Below, piece after piece: positions 6,445-36,382 of a DNA stretch of 42,780 nt. Each line of letters starts with the position of its first letter. Position 1 is the stretch's first letter. The notes under the pieces are model-generated. The model was given only the letters and a program-made list of their open reading frames with translations, ran no database searches and was not told where the DNA came from. The stretch lies in the IMG/VR virus record IMGVR_UViG_3300045988_170124, positions 1 to 42,780 of that record. One strand, written 5' to 3'. This DNA is from a virus. A program made the translations under genes and the position numbers.

Positions 6445-7745
6445 TTAGATTCTCCGTCTGTTTTTACTTTACTAAAGCAAAAATCCGCCCACGCCTGCAT
6501 CAGCTCACGCCGCCGGCGCAGGTACTTATTCCGGTTGTAAGCGCCGTTGTATTTCTTGTCGATCTTGTGGTGCAGCGCCTGTTCCACCACCAGCGAATCA
6601 AAGCGCTGATCGTTGTCGTATTCGTCCGAGAGTGCCCAAGTGCAGAACGTACCTCGCGCCGTGCCATGCTGAGTGGGAATAATCGGATCATCTTTTTTGC
6701 CGCGCTCTTTTGTCTGGGCTTTGTCGATCCATATCGGCAACCCTGCAGCTTTTCGGGCTTTATTCGCATTCTTAATTAGTGCCGAGAATATTGGCTGACA
6801 GTAATGATTGCCCTTGTCACCCACAAATACCCAACCTTCTTTTTTTATACCAACGCTTTTTAAAATATCAATTGCCTGATCTGATAACGGAACAATAAGA
6901 GCGCCGTTAGATTTTATTTTTAGATCGATGCGCTTAATCCACCATACTTTCTCGTTAAGATCAATGTCTTCCCATTTAGCAAGCCGCGCCGTCTTTGAAC
7001 GGGTAGCGGTCAAAATTGAGAATAAAAAGAGTTTTGCACTATCGTTCGGATTCTCGGTTAATTCCTTGATAAAGTCAGGCAAGTCCTCTGCGTTTACCGC
7101 GCCATAATTTTCAGTCTCAATATCGTTCTTTCCCAAGAGGTGCTTTAATGGCCCGTTCTTGTCGGCCGGGTTAATCCATCGATCGGTCTCTTCGGCATAA
7201 ATCCAATCGAAGGTATCTTTGATTGAGCGAAGGCATCGGTTAAAGACAATGGGCTTATCGAGTAGGTTTTTCTGAAGCTGTACCATATCCTTCGGGACAA
7301 TCTGATCGATCTTCATATCACCCAACACAGGGAACACGTGGTTTTTCCAGTTAGCCGTAAAGTCCCGATCAGCACCGGTACGCTCAGTCCAGTCCCCAAC
7401 TTCGAGTTTATGTGCTCTATATAGAAGGGCGGCTTCTTTGAACGTCGGAATCTTGGCCGCCTTCTCCTGCTTCTTCGCCTCCTCTTTGGCCGCAGCCTTC
7501 TCCTCAAGATGCTTCAAGAAATCGTATGCGGAGAGTGCCCGAAGTTTTGAGGCTTCCCGCCGGGCAGTGGCTAAATCCATTGTCGCACCGCCCATGCCGA
7601 GTTCAATGCGCTTGCCGGCAATCTGTCGCCGGAAGACCCATGAGCGATACTCACCGCGGACACGGTAATAAAGGCCGACTACCGACCCGTCGTTATGGAG
7701 ACCATCGGGAAGAGAAGCAAGTTTTGCTTGTGTGAGACGCGCCAT
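6441..7745 (-). CDS. int: Tyrosine integrase, P4-like (N-terminal DUF4102-type arm-binding domain)
   Basis: N-terminus LTQAKLASLPDGLHNDGSVVGLYYRVRGEYRSWVFRRQIAGKRIELGMG. C-terminus HGTARGTFCTWA ... ALHHKIDKKYNGAYNRNKYLRRRRELMQAWADF. I place the start at ATG 7745 (AGGAGG 8 nt upstream) rather than the track start at 7799. Confidence 0.9.
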   Translation of the reverse strand: MARLTQAKLASLPDGLHNDGSVVGLYYRVRGEYRSWVFRRQIAGKRIELGMGGATMDLATARREASKLRALSAYDFLKHLEEKAAAKEEAKKQEKAAKIPTFKEAALLYRAHKLEVGDWTERTGADRDFTANWKNHVFPVLGDMKIDQIVPKDMVQLQKNLLDKPIVFNRCLRSIKDTFDWIYAEETDRWINPADKNGPLKHLLGKNDIETENYGAVNAEDLPDFIKELTENPNDSAKLFLFSILTATRSKTARLAKWEDIDLNEKVWWIKRIDLKIKSNGALIVPLSDQAIDILKSVGIKKEGWVFVGDKGNHYCQPIFSALIKNANKARKAAGLPIWIDKAQTKERGKKDDPIIPTQHGTARGTFCTWALSDEYDNDQRFDSLVVEQALHHKIDKKYNGAYNRNKYLRRRRELMQAWADFCFSKVKTDGESK

Positions 7746-11243: not shown

Positions 11244-11342
11244 CGAAATCCCTCAACTCTTTTGTATCCTGCAGTATCAACGACGATCCCCGGCTTACGC
11301 GCACGAGCTTTTGTGCGCGTACACACATCGGACGGCTTGAAG

Positions 11343-30314: not shown

Positions 30315-30743
30315 TTATTTCCTCCGAGTGAGAAGATGTTCGTATTCGCCCGTAAACTCAGGTTCACAGTCTTCCGGGACCGCTTTCTGAGTCGCATAAA
30401 TCATGGTGATCGTCGTGTCTTGAAGCGCGTGATAGGCCACCTTGCGCCCCGCCATGCCCCGTAGCACCGTGTAGCCCGACACCCGATGAGACTCGCTATC
30501 CGCGCGAATCACCACATCACCGCTGATGATGACCACCGTCGGCACCTTGATAAGGGCTGAGGTAAGCAGCACCCCGGCCGCGATTCGACACGTCCTCACA
30601 TAGCAGCCGGCATGGATAAAGTGATCCGTCGGCACGTCCGCCGGCGGCATCGTTTCGTTGAACGCCTCAAGGGCTTTCACTTCGGCAATCCCTGCCGCCG
30701 TTGTCGGAGGCAGTTCGCCGCGAGATTGCAGTGCCGCCGTCAT
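30315..30743 (-). CDS. Beta-rich (possibly cupin-like) protein (142 aa)
   Basis: ATG 30743 overlaps the GNAT stop as ATGA; the track start at 30791 would overlap the GNAT gene by 52 nt. The pattern HFIHAGCYVRTCRIAAGVLLTS...VVIISGDVVIR...GYTVLRGMAGRKVAYHALQDTTITMIY suggests a small beta-barrel. This is tentative. Confidence 0.55.
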   Translation of the reverse strand: MTAALQSRGELPPTTAAGIAEVKALEAFNETMPPADVPTDHFIHAGCYVRTCRIAAGVLLTSALIKVPTVVIISGDVVIRADSESHRVSGYTVLRGMAGRKVAYHALQDTTITMIYATQKAVPEDCEPEFTGEYEHLLTRRK

Positions 30744-31180
30744 AACCGCACCTGGAAAACCGTGTTGACGGGCGTATAGAGGCGCCGGCACAGTTCCTCA
30801 AACCGAGAACCGCAGCGCGCCCCTACCATCAGCACCTGGGCGCCGGCCTCACGGGCCACCTTCTCGGCCTCACGCAGAAGCCGCAGCCCCGCCGTACCCT
30901 GTCGGTGCTCTTTGGCGAGAAAGATGGATTCCACGGACGCGAGCACTTCCTGATAGTGCGGGATGCGATGGATCATGATATTGACCCCGCCGACAATGCG
31001 TCCGCCGTCAAAAACACCAACCGGGATAAAAGCCCCTGCCTTTTCGGCCGCAATGTACTCATCGGGATTCGGTGCGCCACGCATGAAAGGACTTCCGCTT
31101 TCGTCTGCGTAGTCCTTGATAATCTGCTGAAATTCCGGACGGGCGAACGTTTCCGCCCAAGTCGTTCTACGTACTTCCAT
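30740..31180 (-). CDS. GNAT-family N-acetyltransferase (146 aa)
   Basis: VESIFLAKEHRQGTAGLRLLREAEKVAREAGAQVLMV matches the acetyl-CoA-binding motif A (Q/RxxGxG/A) of GNAT enzymes. Confidence 0.75.
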   Translation of the reverse strand: MEVRRTTWAETFARPEFQQIIKDYADESGSPFMRGAPNPDEYIAAEKAGAFIPVGVFDGGRIVGGVNIMIHRIPHYQEVLASVESIFLAKEHRQGTAGLRLLREAEKVAREAGAQVLMVGARCGSRFEELCRRLYTPVNTVFQVRL

Positions 31181-31230
31181 AGCGCCTCCTATGCCAGCAT
31201 GATCGGCGCAGAGTCAGGAAGTACGCGCAC

Positions 31231-31260
31231 GAAAAACCCCGGTTTCCCGGGGTTCTCTTT
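31231..31260 (-). terminator. Strong intrinsic terminator inside the late operon (hairpin is also U-flanked on the + strand)
   Basis: AACCCCGG-ttt-CCGGGGTT (31235-31253). On the - strand the stem is followed by TTTTTC; on the + strand by CTCTTTTAT. Confidence 0.75.
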
Positions 31261-31279
31261 TATGACAGCCGCGCCTCAA

Positions 31280-31801
31280 TCAGTAGATTGCCGGAATCGG
31301 TATTCCGCCAATAAAGGGCGGAATGCCATTTTTATTCTCACGACGCCGAATCATTTTTTCAAGATTTCGCTGTACTGTCGGCGCGTTTTGATTCTTCGCG
31401 AGCCATACCCGCGCCGCCCGCATCAACCCGTGGCAGAAGTCCACGACGTCCGTGAGATAGGTCTCGTTGCAAACATTGTTGCTGAGGTGTATCCGGCCGT
31501 TTGGAATCGTAAGGATCAGCTTTTTGTTGCCTTTGCGGTCATCCACAGTCCCCGTATGAAGGAGATCGTTGCGAAGCTGCTTCATCAGTTCGGGCGTCGC
31601 CAATGAGAAAAACTCTTGCGACAGGTTCTTTTCGCACCATGCTACGTAGTTCACATTCTTCGCCCAGAAGCCCTCTGTTTCTAAGGCCGCGCACATATCG
31701 GGCAGGGTAAGCGCTGCCATCGTTGCGACGACATACAGTTCGGCCTTAAGCGCCCTGTCTATCTCGTCCAGCAGCATTTCGACACAGTTCGGCTCCGGCA
31801 T
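31280..31801 (-). CDS. Alpha-helical protein with R-x4-H motif (HEPN-like candidate), 173 aa
   Basis: GAGGAG lies 6 nt upstream of ATG 31801. LRNDLLH (R77-H82, nt 31556-31573) fits the RNxxxH form of the HEPN motif. The N-terminal helix is LDEIDRALKAELYVVATMAALTLPDMCAAL. The family was not confirmed. Confidence 0.65.
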   Translation of the reverse strand: MPEPNCVEMLLDEIDRALKAELYVVATMAALTLPDMCAALETEGFWAKNVNYVAWCEKNLSQEFFSLATPELMKQLRNDLLHTGTVDDRKGNKKLILTIPNGRIHLSNNVCNETYLTDVVDFCHGLMRAARVWLAKNQNAPTVQRNLEKMIRRRENKNGIPPFIGGIPIPAIY

Positions 31802-31982
31802 ACGGTTCTCCTCTTTGAGTTCTTACCCAATCGATAAGATCAAAGAGGTCAAGATCGGACTCACCATACCGGTCGACCGAATAAGTGCGGACAACAAGGC
31901 GGCCTTTATCGTTGGCCCATAGCTCAACGGGGTAGCCTTCCTTAAGTTCCCGAATGGGGAGCACAGCGATCTTTCTCTCCAT
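31746..31982 (-). CDS. Small protein (78 aa) upstream of and overlapping the HEPN-like gene
   Basis: ACGGAGAAAG RBS. The 3' end overlaps the next gene by 56 nt. No family recognised. Confidence 0.55.
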   Translation of the reverse strand: MERKIAVLPIRELKEGYPVELWANDKGRLVVRTYSVDRYGESDLDLFDLIDWVRTQRGEPYAGAELCRNAAGRDRQGA

Positions 31983-32002
31983 GATCTTTCTCCGTTGTCC
32001 GA

Positions 32003-32011
32003 ATTATGGCA
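32003..32011 (-). promoter_or_regulatory. Extended -10 promoter candidate (TGcCATAAT) for the two-gene moron
   Basis: The - strand reads aaTGcCATAATtcggacaACGGAGAAAGatcATG. It lies in the 36-nt gap between the tailspike stop (32019) and ATG 31982. No -35 element is evident. Confidence 0.4.
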
Positions 32012-32018
32012 TTAGTGT

Positions 32019-34349
32019 TCAAAGACGCGCCTCAATTTGCGCCAGGCGCCAGCGCTGGTAGGCGCACTCAAGGGCCAAGGCTTCCTCGTAGCGGATGCCG
32101 TACCGATCTCCAGCCGCAGTCACCAGGCGCTTTTCTACGTGCGATACTTCGGGCGTCGTAATGTTCCCGTCCTCGTCCGTCACCTCCGGCTGATCCACCA
32201 CGGTGACGTCCTCGTACTCATCCTCCCACTTGTCGTAGCAGAGAAGACCGTAGCGAGTTGCGTCCAAGCCTTCGGACTTGAAAGCCTCGATGACTTGCTG
32301 GGCGATCACGCCGACATGCAAGCGAGCGTCAGCACCCTTCTTCTCTATCGCGTCCTTGAACTGGAAGACCTTGAAGTTGACCTTGCCCCAAGCACGCATG
32401 AGCGATTCGTCAGGATCGACGATAGAAGTCTTTTCGCGTTCGTCGGAAGTATTGATTGTCCCTGTGGCTGCAAATACCGCAGACCATCTTGCACTACCCG
32501 TACCTAGAAAAGCCGTTCCATCTTCATTTGGACGTAACGACCCCATTGTACGTACATGCCCACTCAAAAAGCGAAGCGATTCTTCGTCGTTTGCATAGAT
32601 GGACGAGAACCCCTCATTGCGAGAAAAACCTATGCCATCAGATCCACCGACATAGAATTTCCGAATGTTTTTTGAATTATCGCCAAACATCCGGATCAAT
32701 TCTTCGTTCCCAACTGAAAAAACTAAATTTTTACTCGTTGAGTACCAGTTGAAAGCTGCCTGTGCAGGGGTATTACTATCCCCAAAGAATATGGATGCTA
32801 CTCGACCTGGATCAGCAACGACTCGAACCGAAGAATTATTTTCACCGCCAGAATCAAAACCACCTATCGTTAGCGTTTTTGCAGACAAATAATTGTCAAA
32901 TTCTGCATCTGAATCACAGGATAGAACCGTATGTCTGCCACCCAAAAACGTGGTGTAGGTGCTATAAGAATTTCCTACTGTACCAATAAACCGACAGCGT
33001 TGTGCATTCTTTGTTAACACGAGCCCATTGAAGGAAGTATCAGCAGACATCGTTATCGGCTTGCCTTGCGTGTCGTAGGCCTGACCTTCATTGTCGATCG
33101 TACATCCAAGGAACAAATCTCGACTTGATCTATCTACACGAACAACAAAAGGCGCATTAGAAGCAAAGCGACAATTAATGTAACGATGACCATGGATACG
33201 TCCAGTGCCGTTGCCAGCCATGCCACCAATGGAGAAAGCACCGCCCTTTTCAACATCAGCGACGGGATCCCCAACCTCCGTCATATCGACACGACGAAGA
33301 TGACTGTAGTGCTGAGGCCCGTAGATTTGACAACCTTCTAAGTAAAGATCGGAGCAACCAAAAGACCCTCGACGATCTCTTACGAGTCCACCTGATAGTT
33401 CATCATAGTAATTTGTCTCATAGGCATCCGATCCAGCTTTTGGCTCTGGGCCTTGTACACGCATCCCCCACAAACCGCCAAAGAACATACAGTCTTTAGC
33501 AGTAAAGCCATCTGCACCACCATCGACATTATCAGACGGATAAGCATTCCCATTTAAAGCAGGGAACCTTGGCATATTGTGCCCATTCGTAGAATCAAGC
33601 CAAACATTGGCTTCTCGGAAATAGCCAATGACATTGACTCGATTCAACTTCACTTGAGTGCGTGTGCCGACAAATACACCGACGCCCCAATTAGCACCTA
33701 AATTTTTACTTTGAGCGACAAGGAATTGTCGCTGTGTCTCAGTGGCAGTTGCGGGATCAATAATAGAGATCTGTTCACGATCAAACTCAGATACATCGGT
33801 TTTAAGACGAACCGCAAAATCAGATAGTACAACCCCTTCCGCTTGTACGTTGAGACATACTGAGATTGGGTCATCCTGCGGGTCTGAAGCAGATCCTCTG
33901 TATCGAACACGAGTACGAATTTTCTTAGCGGCTAAACCATCGACAGGATCTTTAAACAACAAGGTCGAGATATCAAAATATGAAATCACAGTATTGATGT
34001 TTCCACTTCGATACCCAGCTCCAGCTCCGGCTCCAGTGATGATTTGACCTTTTGTTTTGAGTTCAAGCTCACGGCCACATAAATACACTCCCATAGGGAT
34101 AAATACATTTTTACCACTATCGATAGCGGCTTGAATCGCCGCAGTGTCATCATGGTGGCCATCGCCAACAGCCCCAAAGTCCTTCACGTTCACAACGTCT
34201 GCAAACCGCTTGCTCAGCACTCGGGGCACGCTCGAACCTTCTGCTATCACCGGCAACATATCCCCGATGCCTGTGGGCGTTTCCACAATGTGAATATCCT
34301 TGCCCTTCTTCTTGGCGAGGGCGACTCCGGAATGGTATTGGATTGTCAT
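32019..34349 (-). CDS. Tailspike: pectate-lyase-type beta-helix with C-terminal intramolecular chaperone (peptidase S74) domain (776 aa)
   Basis: VNVKDFGAVGDGHHDDTAAIQAAIDSGKNVFIPMGVY is the Pectate_lyase_3 N-terminal signature. The C-terminal NTSDEREKTSIV...LHVGVIAQQVIEAF... is the S74 autoproteolytic chaperone pattern; the Ser codon is at 32445-32447. I place the start at ATG 34349, 2 nt after the upstream stop. Confidence 0.85.
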   Translation of the reverse strand: MTIQYHSGVALAKKKGKDIHIVETPTGIGDMLPVIAEGSSVPRVLSKRFADVVNVKDFGAVGDGHHDDTAAIQAAIDSGKNVFIPMGVYLCGRELELKTKGQIITGAGAGAGYRSGNINTVISYFDISTLLFKDPVDGLAAKKIRTRVRYRGSASDPQDDPISVCLNVQAEGVVLSDFAVRLKTDVSEFDREQISIIDPATATETQRQFLVAQSKNLGANWGVGVFVGTRTQVKLNRVNVIGYFREANVWLDSTNGHNMPRFPALNGNAYPSDNVDGGADGFTAKDCMFFGGLWGMRVQGPEPKAGSDAYETNYYDELSGGLVRDRRGSFGCSDLYLEGCQIYGPQHYSHLRRVDMTEVGDPVADVEKGGAFSIGGMAGNGTGRIHGHRYINCRFASNAPFVVRVDRSSRDLFLGCTIDNEGQAYDTQGKPITMSADTSFNGLVLTKNAQRCRFIGTVGNSYSTYTTFLGGRHTVLSCDSDAEFDNYLSAKTLTIGGFDSGGENNSSVRVVADPGRVASIFFGDSNTPAQAAFNWYSTSKNLVFSVGNEELIRMFGDNSKNIRKFYVGGSDGIGFSRNEGFSSIYANDEESLRFLSGHVRTMGSLRPNEDGTAFLGTGSARWSAVFAATGTINTSDEREKTSIVDPDESLMRAWGKVNFKVFQFKDAIEKKGADARLHVGVIAQQVIEAFKSEGLDATRYGLLCYDKWEDEYEDVTVVDQPEVTDEDGNITTPEVSHVEKRLVTAAGDRYGIRYEEALALECAYQRWRLAQIEARL

Positions 34350-34351
34350 GA

Positions 34352-36382
34352 TTAAGCCGTTGCGAGTTTGGTATAGGCGCCCCAGTTGACAGTTTCGTCG
34401 TCGCCGTTTGGGCATAGACCAAAGCGGATTGCGATCCCAGGGGTTGAAAGGTTGTAGACGGTCTGAATGATTTTCCGCGTAGCGTTTGAGACAGCGCGCT
34501 TAGTAACGATTACGATGGTCTGGCCAAAACCTGACGGAAGATTTGAAGCACTGCCATCGCATGTATAAACCCCTGAATCCCGGAGGTTATTTAGGTCTGC
34601 AGCGCCTTTCGGAATCGCGTCGCCTACCTGCCCCGAGGTCTGCAAGTAGTCCAGCAGGGATGCCCCTTGAGTCTCGCCAGCGCAGACTTGCCCGCCGTTG
34701 TTTCCGATCGCGTCAAATGCAGGAGATGACTTATAGGTGCAATTAGTAAAAGCAAGATACTTGCTACTTGGCCGCGTTATGTCTATTCGACCGCCGTTAA
34801 GGGCGTATAGCGCTGTACGATAATTCTTGAAATTGAAATTCTTAGAGCAATGAGCCAGGGATACCGCACCGCCGTATTCGGCGACGACGCCGCCCCAGCC
34901 GCTCGTCGCACCTACTGAGCCGCCATCGGTGTCACAATCGCAGAGAGTAACGAAAGCGCCATACTCTGCAAACCAGCCGCGGGGGTTCCCTGTAGCGGAT
35001 GAATTTTGTACGCTGACACGACACAGTCCACTAGCAAGCAAGCCTGCAACCGCATTGTTATTCGTTTCAGTTTTGTCAAGGTAAACTGAAGTGCCTCCAC
35101 TGAGGAAAAAGCCGCTGCTACCCGAATTTTTGGATATAAAATCACTGAAATACAGGTTACCGCAGTAGTTTGCATGAACCCCGTTCAGCTTGTTTCCCGT
35201 AGCAGAGCTTCCGTAAACATTTCCAGAAGCCCCCTGGGTAAAGGAAAAGCCGTTCCACGCATTGTTATCGGCCGCAGCATTCTGTACAGAGACTACGCAG
35301 TCACCCAGCGCACTGAATCCAGCGTGGCCGCATTCCGTAGCTCTGATGTCAGTGCAAGCTACGCTACCACCCTGGTGGCGGAAACCGTCAAGGGCGGCTC
35401 CTCTGACCGCGACACCTGAAATTGTAAGTTGGCAGTCTTTAGAAAAAATACCGTATCCCTTTCCCCCGGAGCAATCGAGTATCACAGCGGCTGACGAACT
35501 CCCTATTAACGTCGTCTTTTGTGCTGACAAACTGAGGCCGCTCGGTGCGTCATAGATGCCGTCGGCAAGGTGAACTTCAACGCTTGCTTTAAACCCCGAT
35601 AAAAAAGTGGACAATCCTTCGAGGGAGAAAGGAGCCCCTTCAGACCCATCCCCATCGCCGTCGGGAGAGGCATACACCACAACCGGCATACCCGCAGACC
35701 AACGAGCCAACGTGCGGCCGCCCACCAACCGGTTCGAAATATCTTCCCCGGCGTTGCCCGGATTGCCGTAGCCCTTGACCCAGAAGTACCCGTCGTAGGG
35801 GTAAGCCTCGACCTCTTCGAGGGAGTTCACCAGGTGGGGAATATCCCACGAGTAACGTTCGATCAAGCCCTTGATGGCTTCGCAGGCGGCAAGCGTTTCC
35901 TTGGACGCCCCGGCCGCAGCGATAGCGTCGTCCACCGCGGCGAGCAACTTATCGCGCAGCTGACGAGGGGTGATCGTGTCCGTGGGGTCTGTGATGAGCG
36001 CGCGGCTGACTTGCTCGACAAGCTGCTGAATTTGCACGACCGTTCTGTCAAGCGCCGTGTTTATCGTTTCCGGCGGAAAGCGGATGTAATTCGTGAGCTG
36101 AGTGGTCTGCGTGTAGGGAATGTCCGTCCCAACCGATACGATCTGCGTTTCATTCAGGGCATTCGTCAGAGTCACCGTACCACCGGGCGTAGCCTCCTGA
36201 TCTTGGTTCATTTCCACGGAGTAATCCGCGTTGTATTCCAAATTTTTCGGAGGATCATTCTCTTTTTCTGCCAGGGCGACAAATACGTCCGTCGGCTCAA
36301 AAATCTTGAAGCCAAACGGAAGAATCTTTGTCCCGGCCCCGGTAAAAGGCCCTGCTAATCGTTTTACGTTTCCTACAGCCAT
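34352..36382 (-). CDS. Tail fiber/spike with right-handed beta-helix repeats and C-terminal pyocin-knob-like domain (676 aa)
   Basis: N-terminus MAVGNVKRLAGPFTGAGTKILPFGFKIFEPTDVFV, a phage fiber N-terminal pattern. The centre has repeated G/S/N-rich beta-helix turns. The C-terminus LNNLRDSGVYTCDGSASNLPSGFGQTIVIVTKR...IIQTVYNL...WGAYTKL resembles pyocin knob domains. The start is placed at ATG 36382 (GAGGGG RBS). Confidence 0.75.
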   Translation of the reverse strand: MAVGNVKRLAGPFTGAGTKILPFGFKIFEPTDVFVALAEKENDPPKNLEYNADYSVEMNQDQEATPGGTVTLTNALNETQIVSVGTDIPYTQTTQLTNYIRFPPETINTALDRTVVQIQQLVEQVSRALITDPTDTITPRQLRDKLLAAVDDAIAAAGASKETLAACEAIKGLIERYSWDIPHLVNSLEEVEAYPYDGYFWVKGYGNPGNAGEDISNRLVGGRTLARWSAGMPVVVYASPDGDGDGSEGAPFSLEGLSTFLSGFKASVEVHLADGIYDAPSGLSLSAQKTTLIGSSSAAVILDCSGGKGYGIFSKDCQLTISGVAVRGAALDGFRHQGGSVACTDIRATECGHAGFSALGDCVVSVQNAAADNNAWNGFSFTQGASGNVYGSSATGNKLNGVHANYCGNLYFSDFISKNSGSSGFFLSGGTSVYLDKTETNNNAVAGLLASGLCRVSVQNSSATGNPRGWFAEYGAFVTLCDCDTDGGSVGATSGWGGVVAEYGGAVSLAHCSKNFNFKNYRTALYALNGGRIDITRPSSKYLAFTNCTYKSSPAFDAIGNNGGQVCAGETQGASLLDYLQTSGQVGDAIPKGAADLNNLRDSGVYTCDGSASNLPSGFGQTIVIVTKRAVSNATRKIIQTVYNLSTPGIAIRFGLCPNGDDETVNWGAYTKLATA

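Follow-up and report, generated by a model that had tools for sequence, protein, structure and literature searches.

Several HEPN defence systems of prophages have been described, some of them with small cognate inhibitors. These include Tha/Ith (PMC11087260) and HepS (PMC13043305), and further precedents are AbiV1/abiV2 (10.1101/2024.05.05.592566) and Butters gp57r (10.1101/2023.01.03.522681). The combination of a prophage defence with a cognate counter-defence is a general pattern (PMC11364771), and antiviral hotspots have been reported in P2/P4-like elements (Rousset et al. 2022, PMC9122126, as cited within PMC11364771). We analyzed a viral sequence of 42,780 nucleotides (nt) (IMG/VR record IMGVR_UViG_3300045988_170124, positions 1 to 42,780; the whole stretch is referred to below as the window) in which two overlapping genes follow the tailspike gene. 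They encode proteins of 78 and 173 amino acids (aa), here called p78 and p173.

We found that this pair is carried on an optional cassette and that p173 belongs to a large family of hypothetical proteins that conserve an R-x4-H motif like that of HEPN RNases. Judged from its sequence and setting, the cassette is probably a phage conflict or defence module. The more specific reading, that a HEPN-like RNase (p173) and p78 together make up a phage-borne conflict module on a 756-nt optional cassette, is one we favor tentatively and hold with a little less than even confidence.

An optional cassette behind the tailspike gene

We compared the window to related loci, which were viral contigs found by a scan with the GNAT protein encoded downstream of the pair (13 loci, L035-L047). 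GNAT was 91-99% identical across the 13 loci regardless of cargo, and the portal protein was 99-100% identical to that of the window. Two of the loci (L040 and L042; portal 99% identical) were empty, with a gap of 127 nt from the tailspike stop codon to the GNAT gene. In alignments, the tailspike at the empty sites ends ATTGAGGCGCGGCTGTAA and is followed directly by the terminator region. In the window the order is tailspike end ATTGAGGCGCGTCTTTGA, cassette, and then a second copy of that end, ATTGAGGCGCGGCTGTCA. A repeat search found this direct repeat (32023-32036 vs 31267-31280) to be 14 nt long and 93% identical at a spacing of 756 nt; overall it extends over 14-18 nt. The insert is therefore 756 nt and is bounded by the duplicated last codons of the tailspike gene.

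The same DNA was found in an unrelated phage. L017, with terminase and portal proteins 32% and 36% identical to those of the window, matches the window only over 32008-31248, at 96% nucleotide identity. This homology begins at CATAAT and stops just past CCGGGGTTTTTCGT. Two other loci (L015 and L011) lose similarity to the window right after the terminator. The GC content of the cassette is 0.52-0.55 vs 0.58-0.62 for the backbone. Both genes are real: copies that are 96-99% identical differ mostly at third codon positions, and these comparisons show both products to be under purifying selection. There was no match to the region in a blastn search of 50,697 phage records. On the sequence comparisons, the unit is shown to be a recombining and mobile cassette of optional cargo, located 3' in the tailspike transcription unit. 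This upholds an initial annotation, made from the letters of the window, in which the pair was an accessory unit in the structural region: it is non-essential (the empty sites) and horizontally exchanged (the copy in L017).

The window is from a temperate phage and encodes an integrase, an S24-type repressor, YqaJ, RecT, the small and large terminase subunits, and internal virion proteins. The cassette lies 3' of a gene for a pectate-lyase/Peptidase_S74 tailspike and 5' of the GNAT gene, two small genes and a T7-type portal gene; Pfam domains confirmed this location, which had been proposed in the initial annotation. Both genes, the hairpin and the motif are on the minus strand, and the genes for p78 (31982..31746) and p173 (31801..31280) share 56 nt. 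The two-gene unit, its overlap, both ribosome-binding sites, the position of RNDLLH and the hairpin had all been described correctly. The features, in the direction of transcription, are as follows.

32019..34415, minus strand: tailspike gene (798 aa), the upstream flank (Pfam Pect-lyase_RHGA_epim 2.2e-12, Peptidase_S74 3.5e-13)
32019..32036, minus strand: left copy of the direct repeat, ATTGAGGCGCGTCTTTGA, the last five tailspike codons (IEARL) and stop codon (repeat search, empty-site alignment)
32003..32011, minus strand: -10-like element TGcCATAAT (TGCCATAAT) at the 5' edge of the cassette, a putative promoter element (sequence)
31989..31993, minus strand: ribosome-binding site GGAGA of the p78 gene, 6 nt 5' of the ATG (sequence; invariant in the locus alignment)
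31746..31982, minus strand: p78, a small orphan protein of 78 aa (open reading frame)
31808..31813, minus strand: ribosome-binding site GAGGAG of the p173 gene, 6 nt 5' of the ATG and inside the p78 gene (sequence)
31280..31801, minus strand: p173 (173 aa), helical and HEPN-like, a putative RNase that belongs to the unannotated family phrog_18591
31556..31573, minus strand: R77-N-D-L-L-H82 (R-x4-H), at the C-terminal end of helix 70-83 (alignment, AlphaFold2 helix boundaries)
31263..31280, minus strand: right copy of the direct repeat, ATTGAGGCGCGGCTGTCA, left over from the 3' end of the tailspike gene (empty-site alignment, repeat search)
31232..31254, minus strand: intrinsic terminator (hairpin and U-run), a backbone element closing the tailspike unit (sequence, folding, relatives)
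30740..31180, minus strand: GNAT acetyltransferase, the first backbone gene downstream and outside the cassette (Pfam Acetyltransf_1 8.1e-07)

The first base of the right repeat copy is also the last base of the p173 stop codon.

The site is a recombination hotspot of a temperate phage lineage, and its cargo varies among the related loci. The p78-p173 pair is present in the window, L035 and L041. L037 has a p75-p174 pair in which p174 is 32% identical to p173 and has the motif RLRCKLVHEG. Two loci (L036:2677-3575 and L039:3951-4849) have an alternative load that shares the 5' end of the small gene: an open reading frame of 118 aa with a p78-like N-terminus, then a 92-aa zinc-ribbon-like protein (CPMC...CQHC), and then a 139-aa membrane protein with a hydrophobic stretch. 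L038 has a p78-like gene by itself. L043 (1-306) has a chimeric p173, with the front of allele 1 and the back of allele 2, that lacks a stop codon and reads into the tailspike remnant ...IEARL. In record UViG 178677 (L018:8001-8447 / L035:4376-4822) p173 matches residues 1-149 only and is frameshifted or truncated. The remaining loci (L044-L047) have other tail-fibre modules 5' of GNAT and neither p78 nor p173.

The conserved C-terminal chaperone end of the tailspike forms the left recombination flank. Compared to near-identical phages the tailspike is 65-87% identical, apart from its ends. Its middle (window 32400-34200; GC 0.42-0.49 vs 0.58-0.62 for the backbone) is 65-87% identical or fully replaced in phages with portal proteins 99-100% identical, which indicates a separately exchanged receptor-binding module. 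As listed, the 687-aa and 798-aa tailspike open reading frames overlap by 64 nt (window 34352-34415), and the start of the second may be miscalled since relatives begin MTNYYHSG. Any assignment of a host would be tentative: one metagenome-assembled genome bin was labelled Coriobacteriaceae, but the types of lysis genes in related loci are ambiguous.

A second clade of the pair (p81/p171) is present in L001, L019, L032, L033 and L034, at 47-49% and 56-58% protein identity. Its DNA aligns to the window over ~200 nt inside the p173 gene only, at 72% identity. In this clade the pair is always 3' of a pectate-lyase tailspike gene and 5' of holin and lysozyme genes; L033 has a myovirus-type baseplate. 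An open reading frame of 92-99 aa is found 5' of the pair in some loci. We rejected it as a conserved third component, as its version in L001 is an unrelated membrane protein and the window has none.

The ends of the cassette do not fit the self-contained, classic moron of the initial annotation (morons are said to have been defined by Juhala et al. in 2000 with lambdoid phages): the terminator belongs to the backbone and the promoter-like element is not above chance. The hairpin (AACCCCGG-GAAA-CCGGGGTT at 31254-31235, then TTT) and its U-run are real, and with the flanking A and U tracts the hairpin has an 11-bp stem (centroid -19 kcal/mol, z-score -2.9). However, it is present at sites that have no cassette. 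The same hairpin precedes GNAT in the empty loci and in L044-L047 with their other tail-fibre modules. The terminator is 5' of GNAT in 13/13 related loci and is therefore a backbone element. In addition, the tailspike stop codon at the empty sites runs into the same terminator, which therefore belongs to the phage and not to the cassette. It nevertheless travels with the cassette into L017, L015 and L011. The pair of the distant clade also ends in an intrinsic terminator, of different sequence: GCCCCGC-ttcg-GCGGGG-ttttt in L001 and L032, and AACCCCGTAA...TTACGGGGTTTTTCT in L033.

At the other end, the extended -10 element TGcCATAAT is present at 32011-32003, as first described, but it is not accompanied by a -35 and a sigma-70 scan did not call the site. 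Occurrences of TGNTATAAT with at most one mismatch numbered 11 in the window compared to 13.9 expected by chance. The cassette brings its own 37-nt leader containing CATAAT; the leader is not found at the empty sites, and CATAAT is invariant in six loci. In L017 the TG is displaced or lost, and neither a -35 nor an extended -10 survives there. A weak, constitutive promoter at CATAAT is possible from the sequence and is best called putative. The appearance of a promoter-gene-terminator unit can arise by insertion just 5' of a backbone terminator, which calls for caution when morons are identified from sequence only.

Two smaller observations concern this junction. A 47-nt indel lies between two copies of GAACCCCG just upstream of the hairpin (window 31254-31262; L017:8555-8601; L040:4880-4930); its sequence is present in L017, L011, L040, L037 and L038, and absent in the window, L015, L016 and L018. 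Immediately after the terminator (window 31222-31230, minus strand) is GTGCGCGTA, which recurs at 11294-11305 as part of an inverted repeat, TACGCGCAC...GTGCGCGTA (11294-11330, minus strand), ~50 nt upstream of an open reading frame. In the distant clade TGTGCGCGTGAG is found between the terminator and the holin gene (L001:8595-8606; L032 ~893-904; L033 ~7571-7582). Together, GTGCGCGTA and TGTGCGCGTGAG may represent a common regulatory element that belongs to the following operon.

The p173 family and its HEPN-like features

We found that p173 is a member of a large and widely distributed family. It matched phrog_18591, of unknown function, in PHROGs (4.2e-23). Word-based searches recovered only eight close relatives. 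An exhaustive profile search recovered 1,350 representative clusters (50% identity) at E <= 1e-3, and 464 at E <= 1e-10; most of the proteins are ~165 aa. Named members are from Thermococcus, Thaumarchaeota, Parcubacteria-type and other uncultured bacteria, Saganbacteria and Desulfofundulus, and all are annotated as hypothetical. The family also occurs in Firmicutes and in lysogeny modules of actinophages; a tblastn search with p173 matched 37 actinophage records. The unit had been thought to be unannotated, and this held for the family as a whole, which has no Pfam or NCBIfam model.

The contexts of these relatives led us to reject p173 as a virion or assembly protein. In the seven cellular contexts that we inspected, the family gene was solitary and had no conserved neighbour; solitary genes were seen in Thermococcus, Desulfofundulus, and Parcubacteria-type and other uncultured bacteria. 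In the actinophages Bowser and Nandita the family gene is on the lysogeny side, near integrase and repressor genes. It is directly 5' of a lipase-annotated gene in both phages (Bowser gp32-gp31, L006:4941-6272; Nandita gp35-gp34, L007:4812-6288), and the Nandita copy has an N-terminal extension (229 aa). In Desulfofundulus kuznetsovii (L009:3198-10571) the solitary gene lies among genes for an OLD-family ATPase/TOPRIM nuclease, a WYL fragment, a HicA toxin and an Mrr-type nuclease. This locus, inside a glycosyltransferase region, is one case of a context like that of a defence island.

The R-x4-H motif is the most conserved feature of the family. In an alignment of 98 sequences, all of which match phrog_18591, H82 is present in 98/98, R77, P34 and W133 in 97/98 each, and W55 in 96/98. 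They are followed by Y52 and F122 (95/98 each), N146 and G159 (94/98 each), C37 (91/98), C123 (88/98) and C78 (80/98). The form R-x3-hydrophobic-H was found in 266/273 full-length relatives. The family consensus is R-C-x-x-L-H-Q-G and that of the window clade R-N-x-L-L-H-T-G. The initial annotation had proposed the RNxxxH form of the HEPN motif. N78 is indeed present in the window clade, but the residue after the arginine is Cys in 233/266 relatives and Asn in 18/266.

Family-wide conservation of R-x4-6-H is one of the marks of HEPN proteins (Anantharaman et al. 2013, PMC3710099), and it holds for this family. In the published description of these proteins (PMC3710099), four core helices form an up-down bundle, extra residues are inserted after helix 2 and before helix 3, and helix 3 ends in the motif, which in Csx1 is followed by a beta-hairpin. 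They are further characterised by metal-independent RNase activity from a composite R/H site of the dimer. We modelled p173 with AlphaFold2. With 9 sequences the predicted local distance difference test score (pLDDT) was 68, and with the 98-sequence alignment it was 91.8, with a predicted template-modeling score of 0.87. As had been expected from the sequence, the model is helical: helix 1 (6-19), helix 2 (23-41), a helical insert (49-65), helix 3 (70-83) and a long helix (119-137). R77 and H82 are at the C-terminal end of helix 3. A beta-hairpin region (94-118) follows the motif, and a conserved C-terminal tail adds strands to a small sheet. Judged from the helix boundaries, the model has the topology described for HEPN proteins (PMC3710099).

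We compared the confident model to the PDB with Foldseek. At E <= 10, 12/23 matches were HEPN proteins, from five independent families: AF0298 (2hsb, the top match), AbiV, IRE1, ST0689 and HepT. For 2hsb the E value was 0.39 with template-modeling (TM) scores of 0.36/0.45; the shallow model gave identical top matches, with E 0.15 and probability 0.87 for 2hsb. In a viral structure library the matches were members of the family only, Nandita gp35 (TM 0.83) and one other. In PADLOC the sub-threshold matches were Csx1/Csm6 (0.028; residues 54-132, the motif region) and Cas13b (0.024). We think it somewhat more probable than otherwise that p173 has a divergent HEPN-like fold; membership in the superfamily is not established. 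That p173 is a HEPN-like RNase is plausible and unproven.

If p173 is an active RNase, a large family spanning archaea, uncultured bacteria, Firmicutes and phages, without a Pfam or NCBIfam model, would gain a name and a testable activity.

p78 and the role of the pair

p78 has no match in Pfam, PHROGs, the PDB or the phage database, including tblastn against the 50,697 phage records. Conservation is confined to residues 1-58; the overlap encodes the last ~19 residues, which follow the constraints of the p173 N-terminus. Partners 47-49% identical to p78 are beside every close relative of p173, with overlaps of 53-62 nt, and p78 was found only there and in the hotspot variants, which include a 57%-identical allele. 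A p78-like N-terminus also heads different cargo in L036 and L039, and stands alone in L038. A frameshift fusion of the two proteins is unlikely: relative to p78, the p173 gene is in the +1 frame, and a strong ribosome-binding site of its own precedes it. The pairing and the overlap are compatible with p78 being a cognate regulator or a self-immunity protein. By analogy, the small overlapping partner and the allelic pairs are compatible with self-immunity of the Tha/Ith, Tai/Ati or BstA/aba type.

The notion that we favor tentatively is that the pair acts in phage-phage or phage-host conflict. p173 would be an RNase of a divergent HEPN-like type that needs no metal and relies on R77 and H82. 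Most likely it would be an effector of defence or abortive infection, made either from the prophage or as the last part of the tail operon. Transcription would occur at least by read-through from the tailspike message, with an additional weak promoter at CATAAT possible. p78 would be the cognate regulator or self-immunity partner of p173, as Ith restrains Tha.

Several results weigh against this notion. The structural resemblance is limited, as no Foldseek match to the PDB was significant: the HEPN matches had E >= 0.15, TM 0.36-0.47 and root-mean-square deviations (rmsd) of 6.6-11 A. Of the HEPN prediction, the topology and the best neighbours stood and significance did not. Searches for HEPN families by sequence profile, which the initial annotation had proposed, found none: searches of Pfam and NCBIfam, and of the PDB by phmmer and by profile, linked the p173 family to no HEPN family, p173 had no sequence match in these databases, and 0/98 family members matched any Pfam family even at E up to 10. 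With hhalign the p173 family had a probability of 0.2% vs Butters gp57r and 0.6% vs 80alpha Tha-1. There was no significant match to a PADLOC defence model. The Cys that follows the motif Arg in 233/266 members is not the polar N/D/H of typical HEPN proteins (PMC3710099), and the conserved C37, C78 and C123 could point to a different chemistry. p78 lacks a recognisable fold, as had been noted initially, and hhalign gave no support for a relationship to MazE or AbrB. A partner or a conserved neighbour is missing for most family members. Finally, no promoter was demonstrated by the sigma-70 scan or the chance test, and hence expression in the lysogen is putative.

It is possible, though doubtful, that p173 is a new helical fold with another activity, such as a Cys/His metal site or non-catalytic binding, and that R-x4-H is coincidental. 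Such a fold would account for the lack of a significant sequence or structure match to anything solved, the TM scores below 0.5 to HEPN structures, the Cys after the motif Arg, and the three cysteines, kept in 80-91/98 members alongside H82. These cysteines, on helices 2, 3 and 4, may have no role beyond core packing, or they may be a sign of another chemistry. However, the window clade has lost C78, with N78 in its place, yet keeps R77 and H82. In addition, two independent models both yielded an enrichment of HEPN proteins among their best structural matches, and the position of the motif and the inserts agree with the published HEPN description (PMC3710099).

We consider it unlikely that the pair serves the lytic cycle, as an accessory or counter-defence module that benefits the infecting phage and does not protect the lysogen. 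In that case it would be transcribed solely as the 3' part of the late message of the tailspike, and it could, for example, degrade host or competitor RNA or neutralise a host defence. The cassette is co-directional with the tailspike operon and 5' of the operon's own terminator, with no credible independent promoter in the sigma-70 scan and the chance test, as this explanation would predict. It also fits that in five contexts the pair is always after the tailspike gene and before lysis or portal genes. In the distant clade the pair begins 20 nt after the preceding gene, and CATAAC is there between the ribosome-binding site and the ATG. However, L033 has a 110-nt spacer 5' of the pair with a promoter-like site, TTGCTT-18-TATCTT. 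The family is common as solitary chromosomal genes in archaea and bacteria, and the actinophage members, in the leftward lysogeny region by integrase and repressor, fit expression from a prophage.

It is also conceivable, although we give it little credence, that p78-like proteins are a common adaptor or controller behind which effectors are swapped next to the tailspike, a modular phage immunity. The interchangeable effectors would be the two HEPN-like alleles that are 32% identical, or the zinc-ribbon and membrane proteins. HepS and Tha sense tail proteins, and by analogy the position next to the tailspike might mean that the system senses such proteins or confers immunity to them. If this is true, phrog_18591 would represent either HEPN RNases of a branch not recognised so far or an RNase fold that is new.

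A type II toxin-antitoxin pair is quite improbable. In such a pair p78 would be labile and act as the antitoxin to a constitutively toxic RNase, p173, and the prophage or the cassette would thereby be stabilised. In its favor, the p78 gene is small, lies upstream and overlaps the larger gene, whose product has a nuclease-like motif; translation of the two is probably coupled. Cognate small and large alleles occur in three versions, and AbiV, a close structural neighbour, is itself toxin-antitoxin-like with a small upstream element. However, most of the family is solitary, which is hard to square with constitutive toxicity. Pairing with a DNA-binding antitoxin was not regular (the seven cellular contexts are solitary), and a truncated p173 persists beside p78 (L018/L035). 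The p78-like gene occurs alone or with unrelated cargo, and no DNA-binding or antitoxin fold was detected in p78. An AbrB/MazE-type antitoxin was rejected at <1% with hhalign against MazE and AbrB sequences. The cognate antitoxin first proposed for p78 therefore has no direct support.

Comparison with known systems

Tha/Ith of Staphylococcus aureus prophages (PMC11087260) resembles p173/p78 in several respects. It is prophage-borne with an R-x4-H effector, the gene for a cognate partner of ~66-80 aa overlaps the effector gene, and allelic versions (Tha-1/Tha-2) are exchanged between phages. In contrast to p173, Tha has 301 aa and an N-terminal sensor domain (hhalign 0.6%). ith and tha are antisense (a non-contiguous operon) and in the lysogeny module, whereas the p78 and p173 genes are co-directional, at the end of the tail operon, and known from sequence.

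AbiV of Lactococcus (10.1101/2024.05.05.592566; PDB 9bj5-9bj7), a stand-alone HEPN-type protein, resembles p173 in its small size (~200 aa) and in the element of ~180 bp directly upstream. It is among the best structural neighbours of p173 (TM 0.41-0.43), but the Foldseek E value is at least 4 and the sequences are not similar. Whereas abiV2 functions as an RNA and has no ribosome-binding site, p78 has a strong one, an ATG and conservation at the protein level.

HepS of Gifsy-1 (PMC13043305) and Butters gp57r (10.1101/2023.01.03.522681) are single-domain prophage accessory proteins with a HEPN motif that are non-toxic alone, a parallel to the many solitary members of the p173 family. Unlike the cassette, they are in replication or lysogeny regions and have no small partner. 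gp57r has no detectable sequence relationship to the p173 family (hhalign 0.2%). No HepS candidate was found among six translated reverse-strand Gifsy-1 coding sequences scanned for R-x4-6-H near residue 100.

The minimal HEPN proteins AF0298 (PDB 2hsb) and ST0689 (PDB 1wol), the top and 11th Foldseek matches, share the four-helix core with the p173 model (target-normalised TM 0.45-0.47, E 0.15-6.8, rmsd 6.6-7.2 A). p173 differs in the extra beta-sheet formed by the insert after the motif and the conserved C-terminal tail.

The cassette is like the P2/P4 hotspots (PMC9122126, cited within PMC11364771) and like morons in consisting of optional genes between backbone genes, with presence that varies among near-identical phages, composition off that of the backbone, and alternative cargos at one site. 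It differs from morons in its use of a backbone terminator, in that a promoter of its own is putative, and in being bounded by duplicated last tailspike codons. The locus is a natural experiment, with near-identical phages in which the site is empty or holds one of two divergent alleles, a chimeric or truncated allele, or alternative cargo. By analogy to these precedents, a phage conflict module at this site would be ordinary in kind, and the main value of the locus would lie in the unannotated family and in the allelic series at the hotspot.

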